Shown piece after piece: positions 2,866-39,023 of a DNA stretch of 64,000 bases. This stretch comes from Candidatus Limnocylindrales bacterium. GTDB taxonomy: Bacteria > Chloroflexota > Limnocylindria > Limnocylindrales > CSP1-4. The stretch is from contig JBPPMZ010000069.1 in the NCBI GenBank assembly GCA_051306295.1, positions 17,998 to 81,997 of the forward strand, written 5' to 3'. Under the pieces are notes generated by a model, which saw nothing but the letters and a program-made list of their open reading frames with translations, searched no databases and had not been told where the DNA came from. How positions within the stretch are numbered: the stretch's first letter is position 1; each line of letters begins with the position of its first letter. Position numbers and translations under genes: made by a program.

Positions 2866-4209
2866 ATGACCGCTGTCCCGCCCTCCTCGCGACGTTCGCG
2901 ACCGGCCGCCTGGCTGGATCGCTGGGGTGGCATCCTGCCGCTCCTGGTCGCCGAGTTCGTCGTGTGGCTGGGGTTCGGCGGCCTGCTGCCGGTCCTGCCC
3001 CTGTACTTCACCGAGCAGGGCATCGACCTCGCGACGCTCGGCGTCGTCATCGCGGCCTGGCCGGCTGCCCGACTCGTCAGCGAACCGATCTTCGGCTGGT
3101 TGGCGGATCGCACGGCGCGCGTGCCGCTGATGGTCGTGGGGCTGGTGGTGACCGGCCTTGCCGGCGCCCTCCCGCTCGTCTTCATCGGCCCGACGGCGTT
3201 CATCCTGCTGCGAGCGATCTCCGGGCTGGGTGCCGCCATCTACGATCCGGCGGCCCGCGGCTTCCTGACCGATGCCACGCCCCCGGAGCGCCGCGGCGAA
3301 GCGTTCGGCCTGTACGGCGCGGCGCAGATGGGCGGGCTGCTGCTCGGCCCCACGATCGGGGCGTTCGGGGCCGGGCAGTTCGGTGGCATCGGCTTCGTCT
3401 TCGTGTTCAGTGCGGTCACCTCGGTCATCGCGGCGGCGGGCATCGCGCTCCGGGTGCGCGAGGAGGTCGTCGAACGGCGCGCCCACCGGACGCCGTCGCC
3501 TGACCGTACGGAGTTCCCACCCGATGCCCCGTTCCTCGAGGAGCGCTGGGCGCGCGATCTGGCCGCGGATACTGCTCGGACCGCGGGCGTCGGTCAGGCC
3601 GGGACCGCGGCGGCGCCGATGCGGTTGCTCAATCGGGGCCTCGTCGCGGCTCTCGTGCTGAACATGGGCGGCTACTTCGGGAGTGGCACGTACGAGGTCA
3701 TCTGGAGCCTGTTCCTGGAGCGCCTCGGGGCGGATCTCGCGCTCATCGGTCTGACCTTCGCGATGTTCGGGTTGCCGGTGCTGCTCTTCTCACCCTTCGC
3801 CGGGCGGATCGTCGATCGGCGCGGGCCGTTCGCCTTCGTGGTGCTGGGGACCGTGCTGCCGGCGATCACCGGGATCGTCTACACCTTCCTCGTGGATCCC
3901 GTGCTGGCGGTGCCGCTGATCCTGGTGGAGGCGACCGGGTTCGCCCTGCTCAACCCGGCCCTCTACGCGATCGTCGCCGCGAACTCACCGCCGGGTCGAT
4001 CGTCCACGGCGCAGGGCATCTACGGTGCGGCCGGGACGCTCGGGTTCATCGCCGCGTCGCTGGTGTCGGGCGTGCTGGCCGCCCAGGACATCCGCTACCC
4101 GTTCTACCTGTTCAGTGCCGTGATGATCACGAGTCTGGTCATCGGCATCGCCATCGGTGGCGATCGGTTGCGCATCCGGCCACGCTCGCTGGCAGCAAGC
4201 GATCCTTGA
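2866..4209 (+). CDS. MFS transporter
   Basis: 447 aa, 12-TM pattern, ATG 2866. Long central loop. Confidence 0.85.
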
Positions 4210-4335
4210 TGGATGAGCACGAGCCAAATGCTTCGCGGTCCCTCATATGCGTCTTGGGCGATTTACCGCGAGACGTTCGTCCGAATCTGGCTGCTGACAG
4301 AGAGCAGCGGACACCGGCACGGCCGGAGGCCGCAT

Positions 4336-4364
4336 TTGACCGATGCGGCCTCCGTCCCTATCAT
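4336..4364 (+). promoter_or_regulatory. Sigma-70-like promoter for the tRNA: -35 TTGACC (4336-4341), 17-bp spacer, -10 TATCAT (4359-4364). The -35 is embedded in a 10-bp inverted repeat GGAGGCCGCA/TGCGGCCTCC (4325-4334 / 4344-4353).
   Basis: Hexamers and spacing read directly. Predicted TSS coincides with tRNA +1 at about 4370. Confidence 0.45.
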
Positions 4365-4369
4365 TCGCC

Positions 4370-4444
4370 GGCGGGGTGGAGCAGCGGCAGCTCGTCGGGC
4401 TCATAACCCGAAGGTCACTGGTTCGAATCCAGTCCCCGCAACCA
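4370..4444 (+). tRNA. tRNA-Met, initiator type (anticodon CAT). CCA is encoded.
   Basis: Cloverleaf: acceptor GGCGGGG/CCCCGCA with unpaired 1:72 (G.A), D stem GAGC/GCUC, anticodon stem UCGGG/CCCGA carrying three consecutive G:C pairs, loop CUCAUAA, T arm ACUGG-UUCGAAU-CCAGU, discriminator A, CCA. Near-identical to E. coli tRNA-fMet body. Confidence 0.85.
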
Positions 4445-4457
4445 ACGCCTTTCCCTG

Positions 4458-4492
4458 AACCCCGGGTCCCGACCAACCCGGGGTTCTTTCCT
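4458..4492 (+). terminator. Rho-independent terminator: GAACCCCGGG-(10 nt loop)-CCCGGGGTTC followed by TTTCC
   Basis: Perfect 10-bp inverted repeat immediately after the tRNA 3' end, followed by a T-run. Confidence 0.6.
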
Positions 4493-4500
4493 GTCCGGCG

Positions 4501-4860
4501 TCACTCGCCGCGGCGTTGCCAGTCGGGCAGGTTCGCGGCGTTCCAGTCGAGGCGCTCGGAGTCCCCGGAGGCCGGGTCGATCGAGTAGACCTCCTGCGTG
4601 TTCTCCGTGCGCATCAGGACTCGATCGCCGGCGGGCGACCAGGTCATGATCAGGCCCGTTTCCTCGACGAAGGTCGGTGGCCCGCCGTCGAGGGGCGCGA
4701 TCTCCAGCCGCCGATCGGGCACGTTCTGAGCGACCTCTAGAATGGATTTCCCATCGGGCGACCAGCTCCATCCGAAGCAGCCATCGACGTTGATGATCCC
4801 GACCTCCGCGAAGGATGAGGCGAACGGCCCGGTCCAGCCGCACGACGGCCGCTCGGGCAA
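4501..4860 (-). pseudogene. Fragment of a beta-propeller (TolB/WD40-like, WSPDG repeat) protein. Probably an N-terminally truncated remnant.
   Basis: 119 aa with WSWSPDGKSIL, IAPLDGGPPTFV, WSPAGDRV blade-like repeats. Too short for a full propeller. Abuts the tRNA. Confidence 0.4.
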
Positions 4861-4971
4861 GCTCGGCGGTCGTGATTCCCTGCCTCGCCAGGGTATGGCG
4901 TCCGTGTCAGGGGAACGGCTCTTGGGGGCTGGCCCGGCCGGGCAAGGGCCCGCGGGGCGAGGTCACCCGCG

Positions 4972-5109
4972 ATGACCAGGTCAGCCCGGGTGACCATTTC
5001 GCGACAGACGAGCGTGGCCGTGGCCCCAGGATGCAGGATTCCGCAGGCTGGGGCCACGGCCCGTGCTCATTCGTTCAAGACTGGTCAGCGGGGGTGACCT
5101 GGTCAGCCA
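4972..5109. repeat. Repeat A: 138-bp element with terminal inverted TGACCaGGTCA / TGACCtGGTCA motifs and a central 14-bp perfect hairpin (GGCCGTGGCCCCAG ... CTGGGGCCACGGCC)
   Basis: About 90% identical to copy B at 5677-5814. Direct orientation. Confidence 0.7.
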
Positions 5110-5125
5110 GCCTGACCTGGGGCGA

Positions 5126-5500
5126 TCAGCCAGCCGGCGACGCGGGCAGCGCATCCAGGAAGCGAACGGTGTCGAGCGAGGCCCGGTCGACCTGGAAGTC
5201 CCTGCCAGCAAAGGTCAGGGCCTCGAAGGTCAAGGTCACGCCATCGGCCTCGGTCACGACCAGGATGTTGCGACCGCCGATCGAGTCGTTCCAGAACCCG
5301 CCCCCGGCCGCCTGGGGGACCCAGGTGAGGATGCCGGTTCGGTCATTGGAGTCGCCATCCAGTGTCCAGCACGGGGCCGTCAGGTTCTCGCCGAAGTGCA
5401 GCTCGACCTCGACGGCCCGATGCCCGTCCATCGTGAACTCCTCCTGGCGGACGACGGTGAACCGTGCGTCTCCGTTCAGGTACGCCAGGAACGCGTCCAT
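5126..5500 (-). CDS. Hypothetical protein, likely 5'-truncated (protein-like coding continues upstream of the Met to an in-frame stop near 5611)
   Basis: 124-aa ORF. Upstream in-frame translation ...IDAGDYTFKVWKDLDGFADPCDLEKGRLLIDPG-M looks like genuine protein but has no start codon before a TGA. Confidence 0.4.
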   Translation of the reverse strand: MDAFLAYLNGDARFTVVRQEEFTMDGHRAVEVELHFGENLTAPCWTLDGDSNDRTGILTWVPQAAGGGFWNDSIGGRNILVVTEADGVTLTFEALTFAGRDFQVDRASLDTVRFLDALPASPAG

Positions 5501-5676
5501 GCCGGGATCGATCAGGAGGCGGCCCTTCTCAAGGTCACAGGGATCCGCGAACCCGTCGAGGTCCTTCCAGACCTTGAAGGTGTAGTCGCCGGCATCGATG
5601 ACGATGTGTCGCCGTCAGGCCGATCGTTCCCAAGCAGGGTCGCGGGCTCGAGGCGCGGCTGGCGGGGTCAGCCACC

Positions 5677-5814
5677 ATGACCAGGTCAGCCCGGGTGACC
5701 GATTCGCGACAGATGAGCGTGGCCGTGGCCCCAGGATGCAGGAATCCGCCATCTGGGGACAGGGCGCGTGCTCATTCATTCGAAACAGGTCATCGGGGTT
5801 GACCTGGTTATCCC
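5677..5814. repeat. Repeat B: second copy of the 138-bp TGACC/GGTCA-rich element (central hairpin partly degraded)
   Basis: Aligns with 4972-5109 base for base over the first ~85 nt with few mismatches. Confidence 0.7.
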
Positions 5815-5862
5815 CGGTGACCTCGGGTCGACCCCTCGGGGCGGACCGTTCGGCTCGGACGT

Positions 5863-6618
5863 TCAGTCGAAGCGGAAGGTCCGGATCGCGAGGGTGACGG
5901 AGCCGGCCGCCCACAGCGCCAGGGTCAGGATCGCCCGGGTTTCGACGGCGCTCCCCGCGAGCCCGTCGCCGAGGAGATCGACCAGCGCCGCAGGAGGGAG
6001 GAGCGCCACCACAGGCGCCACCGGCCCAGGCAGGTCCGCGACCGGGATGAGCACGCCACCGATGCCGAGCACCAGCAGGAACAGGACGTTGGCCAGGAGC
6101 AGGGTCGCCTCGGCGCGGAGCGCGCCGGCCAGACCGAGGCCCAGTCCGGCGAAGGTCGCGGTCCCGAGCGCGATCGCGCCGATGAGGAGCGGCCACGATG
6201 GGCCGGCCGCCGGCGGTCGCCAGCCCAGGAACCCTGCTGCAAGCGCCGTCAGCAAAACGAGCAGCCCGAGCTCGATGACGAGCACGGCCAGGATCTTGGC
6301 GCCGACCAGGCCGGTCCGCCCAAGTGGCGACCCGCCGAGCCGCTTGAGGACGCCGTAGCTGCGCTCGTAGGCCGTGGCGATCCCAAGGTTGACGAGGCTG
6401 GTCGCGATGATGGCCAGGGCGAGGACGCCAGGCAGCAGGGCATCGATCCGCGAGCCGGTGGCCTGGGGGCCCGGGACGGCGCCAGACCCGAACACCAGGA
6501 GGACCGCAGCCGGGATGCCGAGCATGGCCAGCAGGTTCTCGCCGCGGCGCGCGGTGAGCCGCAGCTCTACGGCGGTCTGGGCCAGGGTGGCGCGGAGGAG
6601 GGGCGCCGGCCGGCTCAC
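5863..6618 (-). CDS. ABC-2 type transporter permease
   Basis: 6 TM segments, GTG start at 6618 overlapping ATPase stop (GTGA). Confidence 0.8.
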   Translation of the reverse strand: MSRPAPLLRATLAQTAVELRLTARRGENLLAMLGIPAAVLLVFGSGAVPGPQATGSRIDALLPGVLALAIIATSLVNLGIATAYERSYGVLKRLGGSPLGRTGLVGAKILAVLVIELGLLVLLTALAAGFLGWRPPAAGPSWPLLIGAIALGTATFAGLGLGLAGALRAEATLLLANVLFLLVLGIGGVLIPVADLPGPVAPVVALLPPAALVDLLGDGLAGSAVETRAILTLALWAAGSVTLAIRTFRFD

Positions 6619-7562
6619 GACGACCCCTCCGCCCCGACGAGTTCCAGGTACGCCTCCTCGAGCGAGCCTCCCACGGTCCGGGACTCCAGCACGAGGCGAC
6701 CCGCCTCGGCGCACCAGGCCGCGACCGCCGCGACGAGCGCGGGCGTGGGGGTCGGTGCGAGGTCGGGGCCCGTCACTTCGTAGCGGGCCGGCTCCAACTC
6801 AAGGACCGCGCCGCCGCCTGCCGCGGCGCCGAGCGCCAGCAGTTCGGCTGCATCCAGCGGCCGGTCCAGCCGGATGCGCAACCGCGGACGCAGGCCGGCC
6901 GTGAGCTCCGCGACCGTGCCCGCGCCGACGATCCGACCGCCCGACAGGATCGCGATCCGATCCGCCAGCCGCTCGACGTCGACCAGGTCGTGGCTGGTCA
7001 GGAGCACGGCGACCCCGTCCGCACGCAGGCCATGGACGATGTCGCGGGTCGCCGCGCGGGCCTCGGGGTCCATGCCCGCGGTCGGCTCGTCCAGGATCGC
7101 GACCTCCGGCCGCCCGACGAGCGCGACGGCCAGGGCAAGTCGTTGCCGTTCCCCGCCAGACAGCCGCCGGTACGGCGTGGAGGCCACTGCCCGCAAGCCG
7201 ACCAGGTCCAGCAACTCCCCGGGGTCACGCGGCTCGGCGTGGAAGGCCGCGTACTGGCGGAGCGTCTCGAGCGGCCGAGCCCGGATGTCGAAGCCGCCGT
7301 CCTGGAGCATCAGGCCGACCCGGGCCCGCAACGGGCGTCCGCCGCGGACCGGATCCATGCCCAGCACCCTGACCGTGCCCGCGTCGCCGGCCCGGTAGCC
7401 CTCGATGATCTCGACCGTCGTCGTCTTGCCCGCGCCGTTGGGTCCGAGCAGCGCCACGATCTCGCCAGCCCGCACGGTGAGGTCGATGCCGTCGAGGATG
7501 GTTCGCTCGCCGTAGCGCTTGACGACCCGGGCGACCTCGATGGCCGCCTCCGTCTCCGTCAC
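6615..7562 (-). CDS. ABC transporter ATP-binding protein (ABC-2 / DrrA-like)
   Basis: Walker [10 protein letters not shown], signature LSGGERQRL, Walker B ILDEPT, H-loop. GTG start at 7562 (VTETEAAIEV...). Confidence 0.85.
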   Translation of the reverse strand: MTETEAAIEVARVVKRYGERTILDGIDLTVRAGEIVALLGPNGAGKTTTVEIIEGYRAGDAGTVRVLGMDPVRGGRPLRARVGLMLQDGGFDIRARPLETLRQYAAFHAEPRDPGELLDLVGLRAVASTPYRRLSGGERQRLALAVALVGRPEVAILDEPTAGMDPEARAATRDIVHGLRADGVAVLLTSHDLVDVERLADRIAILSGGRIVGAGTVAELTAGLRPRLRIRLDRPLDAAELLALGAAAGGGAVLELEPARYEVTGPDLAPTPTPALVAAVAAWCAEAGRLVLESRTVGGSLEEAYLELVGAEGSS

Positions 7563-10088: not shown

Positions 10089-11726
10089 TCAGTGCCCCCC
10101 GGTCGCGGCGTCGCCGCGATGGCGCAGGTCGAAGACCGGGCGCTCCGAGCGGATCTCCGGCAGGCGATCGAAGTTGTAGGGCGGTGGCGGCGAGCTCGTC
10201 GCCCACTCCAACGTGTTGCCTTCCCACGGATCGTCGCCGGCCGGCTTGCCGCTGCGCAGCGAGACGAAGATGTTCCACAGGAGCGGCAGCATGCTGGCCG
10301 CGATCGTGAATCCGCCGACCGTGGCTGCCAGGTTCAGGTCGTTCCAGCCAGCGGTCGAGGCGTAATCGGCGATGCGTCGCGGCATCCCCGACAGCCCGAG
10401 CTCATGCATCGGGAAGAAGGTCAGGTTGAAGCCGATGAACATGAGCACGAACTGGACCTTGCCCAGACCCTCGCTCAGCATCCGGCCCGTCATCTTGGGG
10501 AACCAGTAGTACAGGCCGCCCATGATCCCGAACACCGAGCCACCGAACAGCACGTAGTGGATGTGGGCCACGACCCAGTACGTATCGTGGATGGCGAAGT
10601 CCACCGGCACCGACGCACTGAACGCGCCGTTGATGCCGCCGATGAGGAACATGCTCAGGAAGCCCAGCGCGAACAGGAGCGGGGTCTTGAGCATCAGCTG
10701 GCCGCGCCACAGGGTGAAGATCCAGTTGAACATCTTGACGCCGGTCGGGACCGCGATGAGGAACGTCATGAGGCTGAAGAACGGCAGGTAGACCGCGCCG
10801 GTCGTGAACATGTGGTGGGCCCACACGGAGAACCCGAGCGCCCCGATGCCGGCCGTCGCGAACACGAACGCCTTGTAGCCGAACAGCGGCTTGCGACTGA
10901 ACACCGGCAGGATCTCGCTGATCATGCCCATCGCCGGCAGGATCATGACGTAGACCGCCGGGTGCGAGTAGAACCAGAAGACGTTCTGCCAGAGGATCGC
11001 ATCGCCGCCGTTGGCGGGGTCGAAGAAGCTGCCGCCGAGATTGCGGTCGATGAAGAGCATGATCAGGGCGCTGGTGATGACCGGCGTCGCCATGAGCACC
11101 AGGACCGACGTCACGAGGACCGTCCAGGTCATGATCGGCATCCGGAACAGCGTCATGCCGGGAGCCCGCATCTTGAACATCGTGACCAGGAAGTTCACGG
11201 CGCCCAGGATCGAGCTCGTGCCGATGAGGATGAGCGCCACGATCCACAGGTCCTGCCCGGTCCCGACGGCCGCGAGGGGCCGGTCCTGGGCCAGCGGGCT
11301 GTAACTCGTCCAACCCGCCGCCGCCGACCCACCCGTCACGAACGATAGCAGGAGCAGGATGCCGCCCAGGGGCAGCATCCAGAACGACAGGGCATTGATG
11401 CGCGGGAAGGCCATGTCCGGCGCGCCGATCTGGAGCGGCACGATGTAGTTGCCGAAGCCCGCCAGCATCGGGATCACGAACAGGAAGATCATGAACGTGG
11501 CGTGCATCGTGAACAGTTCGTTGTAGGTCTGGTCGGTCACGAACTGGAGTCCCGGCTGTGCCAGCTCGACGCGCACACCCAGGGCGAGCAGGCCACCGAT
11601 GAAGAAGAACAGGAACGAGTTGATCACGTACAGGATCCCGATCTTCTTGTGATCGGTCGTGGTCACCCAGTCGTACAGCGTGGTGCGGTACGTCGGGGCG
11701 GCCGGGTGGAGCGCGGTGGTCGCCAC
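10089..11726 (-). CDS. ctaD: Cytochrome c oxidase subunit I (heme-copper oxidase)
   Basis: 545 aa, canonical subunit I sequence (His ligands, WFFGHPEVY-like region). GTG start with GAGGAG SD upstream. Confidence 0.95.
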   Translation of the reverse strand: MATTALHPAAPTYRTTLYDWVTTTDHKKIGILYVINSFLFFFIGGLLALGVRVELAQPGLQFVTDQTYNELFTMHATFMIFLFVIPMLAGFGNYIVPLQIGAPDMAFPRINALSFWMLPLGGILLLLSFVTGGSAAAGWTSYSPLAQDRPLAAVGTGQDLWIVALILIGTSSILGAVNFLVTMFKMRAPGMTLFRMPIMTWTVLVTSVLVLMATPVITSALIMLFIDRNLGGSFFDPANGGDAILWQNVFWFYSHPAVYVMILPAMGMISEILPVFSRKPLFGYKAFVFATAGIGALGFSVWAHHMFTTGAVYLPFFSLMTFLIAVPTGVKMFNWIFTLWRGQLMLKTPLLFALGFLSMFLIGGINGAFSASVPVDFAIHDTYWVVAHIHYVLFGGSVFGIMGGLYYWFPKMTGRMLSEGLGKVQFVLMFIGFNLTFFPMHELGLSGMPRRIADYASTAGWNDLNLAATVGGFTIAASMLPLLWNIFVSLRSGKPAGDDPWEGNTLEWATSSPPPPYNFDRLPEIRSERPVFDLRHRGDAATGGH

Positions 11727-12943: not shown

Positions 12944-13274
12944 GCAGGGTCCTCAACGGTTCGGTCGGGGCACACACCCGGACCAGGCGCGGGTCAAGAA
13001 CGGGTAGCGGTCCGGCCCACGGGGGTCGGACGGCGCCATGATACCCGGAGCGTGGGCCGCTCGCGTGGTCCTGCGTTGTGGCTCGGTGGGAGCAGGCCAG
13101 GGGCGCGCGACCGGCGATGTTCCCCCCAGTACCGCATCCGCGATAGACACCTCGTGGAATCGCGACGAAACGACGACGCCGTGTCGATCCTGCAAGGGAC
13201 CACGCACGTTCGTTCAGGATCCGGTACTGGCCGCACCGCCGAGGCGCGGGATCGGTTCGTGCGACGATGCGGGC

Positions 13275-32653: not shown

Positions 32654-33469
32654 CTAGATGCCGACGTCCGATGATGTCGAGACCCGGTGCACGACGACAT
32701 CGACCGAACCATCGCGGCCGCGGACGGCGATGGTTCGACGATCCTCGGCCGCGGTCGAGCGGCCCGCGGCCTCGGCGGCTGCCACGCTGATGACGACCTC
32801 GCCGACGGCTGCTTCGGCGACCAGCCGGGCCGTGGTGTTGACCACGTCGCCCAGCGCAGTGAAGTCATCCACCGCCCCGACCGGGCCGCTCGTGCCGACG
32901 TAGGCCTCGCCCGTGTGCACAGCTGCTCCGACCGGGATGGTGCCGCGTGGCGTGGCATCGCGGCGTCCGCAGCGCTCGGAGAGATCGATGGCGGCGGCGA
33001 TAGCGGATCTCGCGTGGTCCGGTCCGGAGATGCCACCGAAGAACAGGCCGATCACCTCGTCGCCAACGAATTTGTCGACGATGCCGTCGTGACCCAGGAC
33101 CGTATCGGAGGCGATCCGGTAGAAGCGGTCCAGGAAGGCATGAAAATCGCGCGGCGCGAGCCGCTCGCCGATGGTGGTCGAACCGCGAATGTCCGCGAAC
33201 AGCAGCGTGATCGGGATCTCAGCTCCGGTGAGGCCGTGCCGTCGGAATTCGACGATGCACTTCTGGCAGAGTGCCGGGTTGGCGGCGAAGCGCGCATAGC
33301 CGAAGTGCTTCAGCACCGTGCCGCCCACGCCGGCAAACGGCGCGGCGCACAGCTTGCAACGCGGTGAACTGGGGAAACGCTTCATGGCGCGTCGCATCCC
33401 ACCCAGGCCGGGGTGCTCTCCTGTCAGGACGGCCCGCATCTCGTCCTCGGGCATCGGGGTCGGCGGCAC
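32654..33469 (-). CDS. Class III adenylate/guanylate cyclase with N-terminal zinc ribbon
   Basis: CKLC ... CQKC, then LLFADIRGST ... FVGDEV cyclase core. Confidence 0.8.
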   Translation of the reverse strand: MPPTPMPEDEMRAVLTGEHPGLGGMRRAMKRFPSSPRCKLCAAPFAGVGGTVLKHFGYARFAANPALCQKCIVEFRRHGLTGAEIPITLLFADIRGSTTIGERLAPRDFHAFLDRFYRIASDTVLGHDGIVDKFVGDEVIGLFFGGISGPDHARSAIAAAIDLSERCGRRDATPRGTIPVGAAVHTGEAYVGTSGPVGAVDDFTALGDVVNTTARLVAEAAVGEVVISVAAAEAAGRSTAAEDRRTIAVRGRDGSVDVVVHRVSTSSDVGI

Positions 33470-33650
33470 GGGAGATACCGTACGCTGTCGCCGTCCTGGG
33501 TGGAAGGACCATCCTGAGCGTCAGGCCTTGCGGCGCCCAGGGGCTGTCCTGGACGATCACGCGGTGCGTCCCGGAACCGGACCACGGTCGGGTCGCGGTG
33601 GGACGTCCGGGCCCCTCCCGCCCAGGGAGCGTCGGGCCCACGCTTCGGTC

Positions 33651-35081
33651 ATGCCGACGCCCTCGCGCACCCGTGTTCGATCGACGGTCGTGACCAGCTT
33701 GGTCGCGGTCGTCGTGTTGTCGACGGTGATGATCGGGTCGGCGTCGGCAGCCACCACCGACCCCGACCGCGATGGCCTGACCAGCGCCTACGAGCGTGAC
33801 TGGACCCGGACCGACCCATCGCGCAAGGACACCGACCGCGATGGCACCCCCGACGGCAGCGAGGACCCGGACGCCGACCGCCTGATCAACAAGCAGGAGG
33901 CGACGACCGGCACGCGGCCGCGCCGCGCGGACACGGACCGCGACGGCCTGCGCGACGATCGCGAGAACGCCGATGGCGACGCCCTCTGGAACTGGAGCGA
34001 GTTCCGGGCCGGCACCCATCCGCGCCGGGGCGACAGTGACCGCGATGGGCTTGGCGACGGCAAGGAGGACCCGGACCGCGACGGCCTGTCGAACGCCACG
34101 GAACAGCGCGTCGGTACGCATCCGCGCCGCGCCGACACCGACGGCGACGGCTACAGCGACGCCGCCGAGCGATCGGCCGGCACGAACCCGCTGGACCCGG
34201 CCAGCCACCCGACACCGGCCCCCGGCACCGCCCCGACGCTCCCTGGCGCGCCCGCCTGTCCGGTCTTCCCCGCGGACAACGTGTGGAACGTTCGCGTCGA
34301 TGGTCGGTCGGTGGCGGCGAACTCCGCCACGATGATCTCGGCCATCGGGCTGGACCGCGGCCTGCACATGGACTTCGGGTCGTACGCCGGCTACGGGATC
34401 CCGTATCAGGTCGTGACGGCGGCCACGCCGCGCTCCACGGTCGCCTTCGAGTACGCGGACGAGAGCGACCAGGTCATGTATCCGATCCCGGCCTCGCCAT
34501 CGATCGAGGGCGCAGGCGCGGGCGGAGATCGCCATATCCTCATGGTCGACAAGGACGCGTGTCGGCTGTACGAGCTGTTCGCCGCGGAGAAGGTCGGCAG
34601 CCAGTGGACCGCTGGCAGCGGGGCGACCTGGGACCTGCGCTCGAATGCCCTGCGAGCGGCCGGTTGGACCAGCGCCGATGCGGCCGGCCTGCCGATCCTG
34701 CCCGGCCTGGTCCGCTACGACGAGGTCGCCGCCGGCGCGATCACCCACGCGCTGCGGTTCACGACCAACCAGACCAAGCGCGCGTACGTCTACCCGGCGC
34801 GGCACTACGCGAGCTCGTCGACGTCGACGTCACTGCCGCCGATGGGCATGCGGGTTCGGCTCAAGGCGTCGTACGACACGTCTGCCTTGTCGCCGCACGC
34901 TCGGGCGATCGCGGTTGCGCTCCAGCGCTACGGGATGATCCTGGCCGACAACGGGTCGCCCTGGTACGTGAGTGGTATGAGCGACCCCCGCTTCGACGAC
35001 GATGTCCTGCACGAGCTTGATGTCATCACCGGGCGGGATCTCGAGGTCGTGGACACCAGCGGGTTGGTCAACGGGCCGTAG
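33651..35081 (+). CDS. Secreted protein with thrombospondin type-3-like calcium-binding repeats (DTDRDG/DSDRDG) and a C-terminal domain of unknown function
   Basis: Signal peptide, six or more DxDxDG repeats. Confidence 0.6.
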   Translation: MPTPSRTRVRSTVVTSLVAVVVLSTVMIGSASAATTDPDRDGLTSAYERDWTRTDPSRKDTDRDGTPDGSEDPDADRLINKQEATTGTRPRRADTDRDGLRDDRENADGDALWNWSEFRAGTHPRRGDSDRDGLGDGKEDPDRDGLSNATEQRVGTHPRRADTDGDGYSDAAERSAGTNPLDPASHPTPAPGTAPTLPGAPACPVFPADNVWNVRVDGRSVAANSATMISAIGLDRGLHMDFGSYAGYGIPYQVVTAATPRSTVAFEYADESDQVMYPIPASPSIEGAGAGGDRHILMVDKDACRLYELFAAEKVGSQWTAGSGATWDLRSNALRAAGWTSADAAGLPILPGLVRYDEVAAGAITHALRFTTNQTKRAYVYPARHYASSSTSTSLPPMGMRVRLKASYDTSALSPHARAIAVALQRYGMILADNGSPWYVSGMSDPRFDDDVLHELDVITGRDLEVVDTSGLVNGP

Positions 35082-37796: not shown

Positions 37797-37822
37797 TCAG
37801 GAGTCGCGGCCGCCGCCCGCCT

Positions 37823-37945
37823 GCGTTCCTCTGAGTACCGGAATCGCGACGAACCCTTCGTGGATCGCCGACCAAACGACACGATCCTTTCGATCCTGCG
37901 TCGCACCGTGCACGTTCATACGGATCTCGGTACTCACCGGAACGT
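37823..37945. repeat. X-family element copy 2 (123 bp, TIRs GCGTTCCTCTGAGTACCGG ... CCGGTACTCACCGGAACG)
   Basis: Near-identical to copy 3. Distinct flanks on both sides. Confidence 0.7.
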
Positions 37946-38121: not shown

Positions 38122-38757
38122 TCAGGCCATCTCGCGTGCCCGAACCGGAAAGGCAGTGTTCAAGTACGGCCGGTTGGCCCACAGCACTCGCTCGACCTCG
38201 TCACTGGCCAAGACGAGCAGCCAGGTCTGGACTCGCCGTGGCTCCCAGCCGAGCTCTCGTGCGCGGTCCCAGGCCGCCCGCTCATACCAGCCGAGTTGGC
38301 GCTCCACGGCGCCGAGATCATCGAGCCGCGTCTTGACCTCGATTACAAGAAGCGTCCGGGTCCTGGGGTCGAAGGCCAGCAGGTCGATCCAACCGTGCGA
38401 CCGACCGTGGACGATCTCGATCTCGCGCGCCGCGTCCCACCCCTGGCTGCGCAATCGACGCTCGACATAGGCCGAACATCGAGCGTGGACGGCATCGCGC
38501 ACCCGCGGCCCGCCGATGATGGTCGGGCGGCGGATCGCCAGGTCGACCTCGAGACCGAGGGCCTGGGCGATCGCTTCTACGCGACGTATCGATGGATTCG
38601 CATCGCCGCGCTCGACCCTGGCGATATAGCTCCGGGTGACCCCCGCCCGATCGGCGACGGCCTGCTGCGTCAGGTCCAACGCCAGGCGCGTGTCGAGGCA
38701 GGCCCGGGCGAATGTCGTCCGGACCGGCTGCCGTGCGGGGCCGGTACTCGATGTCAT
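38122..38757 (-). CDS. XRE-family HTH domain fused to a PD-(D/E)xK nuclease-fold domain
   Basis: From ATG at 38757: HTH TQQAVADRAGVTRSYIARVERG. C-terminal core GWIDLLAFD ... LLVIEVK (Asp, then Glu-x-Lys). The 288-aa track ORF over-extends into the repeat. Confidence 0.6.
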   Translation of the reverse strand: MTSSTGPARQPVRTTFARACLDTRLALDLTQQAVADRAGVTRSYIARVERGDANPSIRRVEAIAQALGLEVDLAIRRPTIIGGPRVRDAVHARCSAYVERRLRSQGWDAAREIEIVHGRSHGWIDLLAFDPRTRTLLVIEVKTRLDDLGAVERQLGWYERAAWDRARELGWEPRRVQTWLLVLASDEVERVLWANRPYLNTAFPVRAREMA

Positions 38758-38837
38758 GCGGACATTGGAGCAGAGGGCCCTTACCCCGGACTTACCCGGG
38801 GCTCTTCCGGCCCGTCGCCGTTCCACCGCGCGCCCGG

Positions 38838-38958
38838 TGTGCCCCTGAGTACCGGAATCGCGACGAACCCTTCGTGGATCGCCGACCAAACGACACGATC
38901 CTGCCGATCCTGCGTCGCACCGTGCACGTTCATACGGATCTCGGTACTCACCGGAACG
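38838..38958. repeat. X-family element copy 3 (about 121 bp), direct orientation relative to copy 2
   Basis: Differs from copy 2 by about 3 substitutions internally. 5' outer TIR partly degenerate (GTGCCCCT vs GCGTTCCT). Confidence 0.7.
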
Positions 38959-39023
38959 TTGGCCACCCTGACCATCGGGAGCCCCCACGTCACCGAGCGC
39001 GACGACGGACTACACTTCGCGAC

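Follow-up and report, generated by a model that had tools for sequence, protein, structure and literature searches.

The 64-kb window analysed here, a stretch of 64,000 nucleotides from contig JBPPMZ010000069.1 of a Candidatus Limnocylindrales bacterium, contains two copies of a small palindromic repeat close to a tRNA-Met gene of the initiator type. The repeat is probably, with a likelihood that we put at roughly 60%, a low-copy, non-coding and non-autonomous element resembling the miniature inverted-repeat transposable elements (MITEs), able to form a hairpin and seen so far only in the Limnocylindrales (Chloroflexota). We read it in this way because it is small and non-coding, because it has 37-bp ends with a conserved motif, because one copy is flanked by a short duplication, because it occurs sporadically at non-orthologous sites and is absent from relatives, and because the other copy is in decay.

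Two copies of one element

A repeat search and blastn of the window identified two direct copies of a single family, copy A at 4947-5122 and copy B at 5652-5827, each of 176 nt and 82–83% identical to one another. Taken strictly, from inverted repeat to inverted repeat, the element is about 159 bp long and its copies (Table 1) are 83.6% identical. No third copy was found in the window by blastn or by the whole-window repeat search. A sequence-only reading of this DNA had placed direct copies of about 90% identity at 4972-5109 and 5677-5814; the copies are real and direct, but the identity over these limits is 119/138 (86.2%). The direct alignment is only moderately better than the inverted one (83% versus 75%), because the unit is itself palindromic, and indeed the whole unit of each copy is a long imperfect palindrome. 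The half-sites that had been seen just outside a 138-bp unit are also present, but they are not external to the repeat; they belong to the element, which is hence larger than that unit. The window has a G+C content of 70%, and its DNA is here 100% identical to a Logan contig of SRR22508346 (L001).

Inverted ends, central stem and folding

The ends of the element are terminal inverted repeats, as had been proposed, and each is an arm of 37 nt composed of two abutting 17-bp palindromes with the form GGTCA-N7-TGACC. The half-sites within the arms are regularly arranged, at 12/6/12 nt. The arms are 78% complementary overall, and in copy A every half-site matches. The eight palindromes of the two copies start at 4961, 4979, 5083, 5101, 5666, 5684, 5788 and 5806; all but one of them are perfect, the exception having a single mismatch. 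When up to one mismatch is allowed, GGTCA-N7-TGACC occurs ten times in the window versus 2.45 expected, and only two of these matches lie outside the element copies. The shorter central palindromes that had been described stood in part: TGACCAGGTCA is present at 4973 and 5678 and TGACCTGGTCA at 5095, but the 3' counterpart in copy B is imperfect, reading TGACCTGGTTA at 5800. Exact TGACCNGGTCA is found three times in 64 kb versus 0.08 expected, and none of 100 shuffles reached three. Two TGACCNGGTCA centres within an element are spaced 111 nt apart.

Between its arms copy A carries a perfect 14-bp hairpin, 5016-5029 pairing with 5048-5061, exactly as had been described. Across the three copies now known (see below) and both strands, only CCCAG / CTGGG is invariant in the central stem. 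As single-stranded DNA the whole element folds to -63.1 kcal/mol in copy A (z -7.1) and -48.5 kcal/mol in copy B (z -3.2), and the minus-strand RNA of copy A folds to -111.8 kcal/mol (z -6.8). Copy B has decayed: its outer right palindrome reads GGTTA, its central stem has three mismatches and its hairpin is weaker. Such a loss of a half-site base, of stem pairs and of hairpin stability is as would be expected for a selfish copy that is decaying neutrally.

The ORFs (open reading frames) that cross the element fail a coding filter based on G+C content at third and second codon positions (GC3/GC2), and a protein search with the element's translation, aimed at spurious ORFs over other copies, returned nothing. 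Rfam covariance models identified only the tRNA, both at E<=1 over 4000-7000 and at the gathering score over the whole window. A simple promoter and terminator scan gave no signal inside the elements, and only the tRNA's own.

A third copy in another genome

Is the repeat confined to this locus? We scanned one genome per species, 185,579 species in all, for the pattern GGTCAN7TGACCNGGTCAN7TGACC; the window's own genome is absent from this collection and from the JGI metagenomes. Of the 14 loci found, 13 are chance matches, mostly an 18-bp unit in tandem, and at least nine of them lie inside long ORFs. The single true homolog is at 661-826 of NZ_CALMVY010000132.1 (L012), where a palindromic sequence with the same 111-nt spacing is 72–73% identical to the window copies over about 165 nt. 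It is located between two convergent genes, an acidic ORF and ychF, at a site unrelated to the window locus. L012 is a RefSeq contig of a metagenome-assembled genome (MAG) labelled "uncultured Arthrobacter sp."; yet its YchF is 86–90% identical to the YchF of Candidatus Limnocylindrales and Chloroflexota MAGs, and on this ground it is almost certainly a mis-binned Limnocylindrales contig. Its gene order also agrees with the Limnocylindrales loci L038 and L040. With L012 so assigned, the element family is so far confined to the Limnocylindrales. In five relatives of the L012 site (L037-L042) the corresponding spacer, as far as it is covered by the contig, ranges between about 45 and about 245 bp, and none contains the element; the empty site is not exactly definable, since the nearest relatives are about 79% identical and the spacer is too diverged.

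An nhmmer profile of the element, run over the 370 kb examined, identified copies A and B and the L012 copy only. The element had no blastn match in plasmid and phage collections, and the pattern TGACCAGGTCAN7TGACCN{27,33}CCCAG gave no locus in viral contigs. Nothing relevant was found in the literature on the palindrome or on repeats of the Limnocylindria.

Insertion of copy A and loss of DNA at copy B

Copy A lies between two 7-bp direct repeats (Table 1), which we take as a putative target-site duplication. If each end is allowed ±3 nt of freedom, about 1% of random positions would by chance show a flanking repeat of 7 bp or more. The DNA on both sides of copy A lines up with the spacer between two genes of the related locus L043, a sigma-like gene and one that we call gene X, the remnant of which lies between copies A and B in the window. 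Copy A is a clean insertion in this spacer, just after the gene X stop codon. Copy B is older and decaying, at a site from which about 1 kb has been lost, and here the copy, with 35–50 bp of unassignable DNA on each side, stands in place of the lost sequence. The loss, which took the ECF (extracytoplasmic function) sigma gene and the 5' third of gene X, may have been an adjacent deletion associated with the element or a recombination between two former copies.

The ORF enclosed by the copies (5126-5500) had been judged to lack its 5' end. This is correct, because the longer gene X homologs of L035, L036, L043 and L044 include the N-terminal region that is missing here. Homologs range from 147 to 271 aa, the longest being P0002 (239 aa) and P0004 (271 aa); the remnant aligns to residues 76–238 of the first and 111–271 of the second, and the first 75–110 codons are missing from the window. 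L043 encodes P0002, and L044 encodes P0007 (198 aa), also with the N-terminal region. In L035 and L036, which are syntenic to the window and have flanking cytochrome-oxidase and ABC genes of 77–80% nucleotide identity to it, P0004 aligns over its full 271 aa, with frameshifts. The order in L044 and L036 is ABC-2 permease, ECF sigma gene, gene X and further genes, and L036 also has the tRNA-fMet. In L043, L035 and L044 a sigma-like gene directly follows gene X, and in L035 an additional PD40 gene lies upstream of the one for ECF sigma. The element is absent from these four syntenic loci and from all eight related loci (106 kb) that include them.

These comparisons bear on whether the repeats might be immobile debris of a local tandem duplication beside the tRNA, or att-type scars of an integrated island. 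The two window copies are less than 900 bp apart in a region with clear deletions, and the tRNA-adjacent interval is variable, about 9–10 kb in relatives versus 1.65 kb here, as such an origin would have it. The homologous copy in L012 is, however, at an unrelated locus, neither the tRNA nor any of the genes lost from the window locus resembles the element, and nothing else is duplicated at the 705-bp period. Fresh att scars would not differ as these copies do (14–17%). We consider this origin very improbable. As a candidate, tRNA-island att sites were rejected; the unit is dissimilar to 4370-4444, and only a 124-aa gene remnant lies between the copies. The association with tRNA-fMet that had been emphasised also falls away, for the repeats share nothing with the tRNA and relatives keep the same tRNA without repeats. 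The sequence-only reading had itself named a finding that would make the repeats debris of gene duplication, namely confinement to this locus together with an intact larger gene spanning the region in relatives. Instead, a copy is present elsewhere in L012 and no part of the element is found within the intact gene X of relatives, which supports the earlier view of a repeat family in its own right.

The same reading had seen a repeat–gene–repeat arrangement. The layout is present, but it is not a single unit: copy A is an independent insertion with its own duplication, and the older copy B occupies a deletion junction. Direct repeats around an ORF, with imperfect palindromes of attC-like length, might also suggest integron attC sites, or the template and variable repeats of a diversity-generating retroelement (DGR) flanking a cassette. 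There are no RYYYAAC / GTTRRRY cores on either strand of either copy, however, and the 31 mismatches between A and B show no adenine bias (5 have an A in copy A and 8 have one in copy B). Both copies are intergenic, neither an integrase nor a reverse transcriptase is among the ORFs scanned, and relatives have gene X at the same syntenic place without the repeat, so that it is no cassette. Both candidates are refuted on their defining motifs, and as an explanation of the locus they are next to incredible.

What is conserved between the copies

The half-sites agree at 39 of 40 bases between copies A and B and at 95–98% between either and L012, and the A and T linkers between palindromes are invariant. 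The N7 spacers agree at 18/28 positions (64%) between A and B and at 46–50% with L012, and the interior (88 aligned columns) at 73/88 (83%) and 59–65%, respectively. Opposite arms do not have complementary N7 spacers. RNAalifold, with three sequences only, found 3 of 64 pairs to be compensatory and many broken in L012, the element of which has a weak hairpin of its own (z -2.5). As far as these alignments can tell, the constraint is on the 5-bp half-sites and their spacing, and not on the stem. Since half-sites are kept while N7 spacers and stem vary, the pattern points to recognition by a protein that would bind double-stranded DNA.

Could the repeat be an element of the REP/REPIN type, a doublet of short palindromes that a domesticated Y1 (RAYT) transposase would copy as single-stranded DNA, or that the host would retain for the RNA or DNA structure as a stabiliser of mRNA 3' ends or a terminator? 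The whole unit folds strongly in DNA and RNA, there are a few compensatory changes in the central stem, and all three copies are just downstream of stop codons (35 nt for copy B, about 0–7 nt for copy A and 75–95 nt in L012), each of which is consistent with such an element. The weak covariation and broken pairs, on the other hand, are less so, and invariant half-sites with non-complementary spacers indicate recognition of double-stranded sequence. REP/REPIN families normally have tens to hundreds of copies whereas this one is very rare, a flanking duplication like that of copy A is not made by Y1 transposition, and there is no T-tract terminator. A REP/REPIN origin is therefore possible, but unlikely; the MITE-like reading accounts better for the pattern of conservation, for the copy number and for the duplication.

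Conserved half-sites might alternatively belong to an array of binding sites for a host protein, such as an operator, iteron, centromere-like or recombination site, that has been duplicated locally. Eight well-conserved 5-bp half-sites in a regular 12/6/12-nt arrangement are typical of palindromes bound by dimers, and the spacers vary freely. Yet the sites are absent at orthologous positions in the eight related loci and present at the non-orthologous site in L012. Isolated sites do not occur elsewhere in 170 kb of Limnocylindrales DNA, hence there is no regulon; perfect GGTCA-N7-TGACC is likewise found nowhere outside the element copies in the window or in the 106 kb of relatives, and there is no regulon-like spread of sites. 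The adjacent genes are a tRNA, gene remnants and an ABC transporter, with no rep, par, resolvase or integrase gene. In addition, copy B is decaying and there is no match in plasmid or phage collections. We regard an array of this kind as decidedly unlikely. The iteron or centromere-like array that had been suggested earlier fails on the same grounds: the sites are confined to the element copies, the adjacent genes include no rep, par or recombinase gene, and syntenic loci lack the sites.

A probable MITE-like element and how it may move

At 159–176 bp the repeat is well within the size of MITEs (less than about 600 bp) and it is non-coding. It has terminal inverted repeats, and it may be dispersed, two local copies and one in another genome being known, and its insertion is polymorphic with respect to L035, L036, L043, L044 and L037-L042. 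A transposase encoded elsewhere would act on such an element in trans, binding the GGTCA-N7-TGACC palindromes as dimers. The bound dimers would then pair the two element ends, and the element would be inserted at a staggered cut of 6–7 bp. If transcribed with the minus-strand genes, each copy would fold in the RNA into a very stable hairpin directly behind a stop codon. This hairpin could incidentally stabilise or end upstream transcripts, both of which have been described for other palindromic intergenic repeats.

Several observations weigh against a MITE-like element. Only three copies are known, one of them with a flanking duplication; copy B, at the deletion junction, and the L012 copy have none, and with three elements tested the chance figure for one flanking duplication rises to about 3%. 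L012 was found through the half-site pattern, so that half of its half-site conservation is there by construction, one arm having been preselected. No transposase is among the ten window ORFs scanned. Double-palindrome ends that bracket a gene were not found in the 185,579 species genomes or in the window, although a partner with slightly different ends would be missed. In JGI metagenomes the pattern used for the viral contigs gave 18 loci, none homologous by blastn. Since the species scan gave one true relative and these metagenomes none, the family is very rare and its copy number low, something unusual among MITEs.

The element could instead be a working site for a new protein that reads GGTCA half-sites with a 12/6/12-nt grammar, at four dimer sites per element. 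This protein would be part of a new kind of recombinase or transposase system, without a recognisable partner in the 185,579 reference genomes, or would be a host factor exploiting the hairpin or cruciform. We think this a long shot. If it were true, the position of copy B at a deletion junction would reflect site-directed rearrangement and not accident.

Comparison with known repeats

Correia/NEMIS of Neisseria, ERIC/IRU of enterobacteria and RUP of Streptococcus pneumoniae are bacterial MITEs whose whole length is palindromic; a genome carries tens to hundreds of copies of them, and their target duplications are mostly TA. The element resembles them in being 100–200 bp long and non-coding, with terminal inverted repeats and one long hairpin. 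It is also, like them, intergenic, mostly after stop codons, sporadic among relatives and, in one copy, flanked by a putative short duplication. Unlike them it is very rare, with three known copies, and its duplication is G+C-rich and 6–7 bp long. To our knowledge no described family has the architecture or the sequence of an inverted repeat of two abutting 17-bp GGTCA-N7-TGACC palindromes.

With REP/BIME/REPIN elements it shares short palindromes in inverted pairs, a hairpin and a location downstream of genes. It differs from these in that the stems of its 17-mers are only 5 bp, in its lack of a conserved GTAG-type head, in its low copy number and in the flanking duplication of copy A, and we know of no RAYT gene in the Limnocylindrales lineage. 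The ends of the IS21 family, Tn7 and Mu, as well as res of Tn3/gamma-delta and the IRS of Tn4430, contain several copies of a short protein-binding motif within a 30–40-bp end or a site of about 120 bp. The element likewise packs a repeated short motif into each end. Unlike the element, however, which has no transposase or recombinase gene near it, these systems have that gene alongside, and the sequences of their motifs bear no relation to its own. A pair of res-type sites in direct orientation would be resolved and would not persist.

The element is thus an undescribed family, but of an ordinary kind, a palindromic MITE-like repeat. It adds a small repeat family to a poorly known lineage of uncultured soil and freshwater bacteria, the Limnocylindrales, in which such elements mark a decaying and rearranging stretch beside a tRNA gene. 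It explains two pseudogene fragments that are annotated as "hypothetical proteins", and it flags the mis-binned "Arthrobacter" contig. The 17-bp palindrome GGTCA-N7-TGACC could be used as bait for the protein by which the element is moved or bound. All this is of modest practical value, and no long-standing question is opened.

Genes and gene remnants of the locus

The features of the locus are listed in Table 1. The initiator features of the tRNA-Met, identified by reading its sequence, are the 1-72 mismatch and GGG/CCC in the anticodon stem. ORF 5126-5500 encodes a protein identical to the annotated hypothetical protein ACSLFN_04920 [Candidatus Limnocylindrales bacterium].

Table 1. Positions of the element copies, their parts and the neighbouring genes in the window
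Feature	Position	Strand	Remarks
tRNA-Met (CAT), initiator type	4370..4444	+	own promoter-like site; terminator hairpin 4457-4486; conserved landmark, not part of the repeat
PD40 remnant, 119-aa ORF	4501..4860	-	last blades of a PD40/TolB-type beta-propeller
Sigma-like gene remnant	4809..4868	-	5' region, sigma-70 region 2-like, "...RLDRAVRLILRG..."; out-of-frame fusion to the PD40 remnant
Left 7-bp direct repeat GGGGCGA	4954..4960		putative target-site duplication of copy A; flanking-repeat test
Copy A, strict	4960..5118		better preserved copy; DNA hairpin; nhmmer 168 bits
Left terminal inverted repeat, copy A	4960..4996		17-bp palindromes 4961-4977 and 4979-4995; linker single A
Central stem-loop, copy A	5016..5061		perfect 14-bp stem GGCCGTGGCCCCAG / CTGGGGCCACGGCC; 18-nt, partly self-pairing loop
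Right terminal inverted repeat, copy A	5082..5118		17-bp palindromes 5083-5099 and 5101-5117; linker single T
Right 7-bp direct repeat GGGGCGA	5119..5125		abuts the gene X stop codon, 5126-5128
Gene X remnant	5126..5614	-	no Pfam family; called ORF 5126-5500; in-frame stop 5615-5617
Copy B, strict	5665..5823		degenerate; palindromes at 5666, 5684, 5788 and 5806
ABC-2 permease gene	5863..6714	-	stop codon 35 nt from copy B; upstream edge of the ~1-kb loss

A separate deletion about 100 bp beyond copy A fuses the sigma-like remnant to the PD40 remnant and touches no element. The sigma-like remnant (4809-4868) is matched in L043 at 875-1204 and in L035 at 10669-10716. Homologs of the PD40 remnant outside its own cluster are all longer (106–2066 aa, most at least 250 aa), and from this comparison the 119-aa ORF looks 5'-truncated. 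The 119-aa "hypothetical protein" annotated on the minus strand in the 4501-4953 region is a chimeric remnant, with a sigma-like 5' region and PD40/TolB blades. GC3 is still about 0.88 in the sigma-like remnant, the PD40 remnant and gene X, and the decay of the remnants therefore looks recent.

A second Logan contig, L002 (SRR22508361), was compared over window 5033-6393. It is identical to the window over 5033-6104, including copy B and gene X, and hence holds no information on constraint. From 6105 on, within the ABC-2 permease gene, the two differ at 43 of 287 bp (about 15%), most of the mismatches falling on third codon positions. The step may be a strain recombination breakpoint or a chimeric assembly, either of which would produce it. 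Within the gene X remnant, four GGTCA half-sites occur in 45 bp at 5213-5256 on the minus strand, where they are Leu-Thr/Val-Thr codons (…VTLTFEALTF…); they are probably codon usage and not part of an element.

Other repeats in the window and at related sites

A second repeat family of 126 nt is present in the window at 13114-13239, 37820-37945 and 38834-38959, with inverted ends (G)AGTACCG...CGGTACT(C). Like the element described above it is small and intergenic and has inverted ends, and two of its copies bracket a single gene. Unlike the element, its gene-flanking copies are 95% identical and the enclosed gene looks intact, and the two families are unrelated in sequence. The enclosed gene (38122-38757, minus strand) has an N-terminal HTH_3 domain and, by eye, a C-terminal PD-(D/E)xK-like "D...EVK" motif. 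The third copy, at 64% identity, is upstream of a CtaG gene, where the window seems to be about 120–140 bp longer than L036 and L044, although the alignment is not clean. No copies of this second family were found in the other loci examined. The four repeats with a 102-bp period at 33828-34190, in a 587-aa ORF (33318-35081), are TSP3_bac repeats, an ordinary coding repeat.

Among the pattern hits of the species scan, arrays of GGTCA-N7-TGACC-type 17-mers with an 18-bp period are present in a Dermatophilaceae MAG (L010, 6416-6470), where an ATG lies just downstream, and in a Treponema MAG (L011, 4330-4470). They share no sequence relationship with the element, apparently fall outside any convincing coding frame, and may serve other systems as operator or iteron arrays. 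The spacer between ychF and the acidic ORF, in which the L012 copy is found, varies from about 45 bp in L038 to 335 bp in L012 and has lineage-specific fillers, among them a duplicated GTTGCCGTGGGGCG motif in L040 and GGCCGGATCC repeats in L039. Small insertions seem to have landed there repeatedly.

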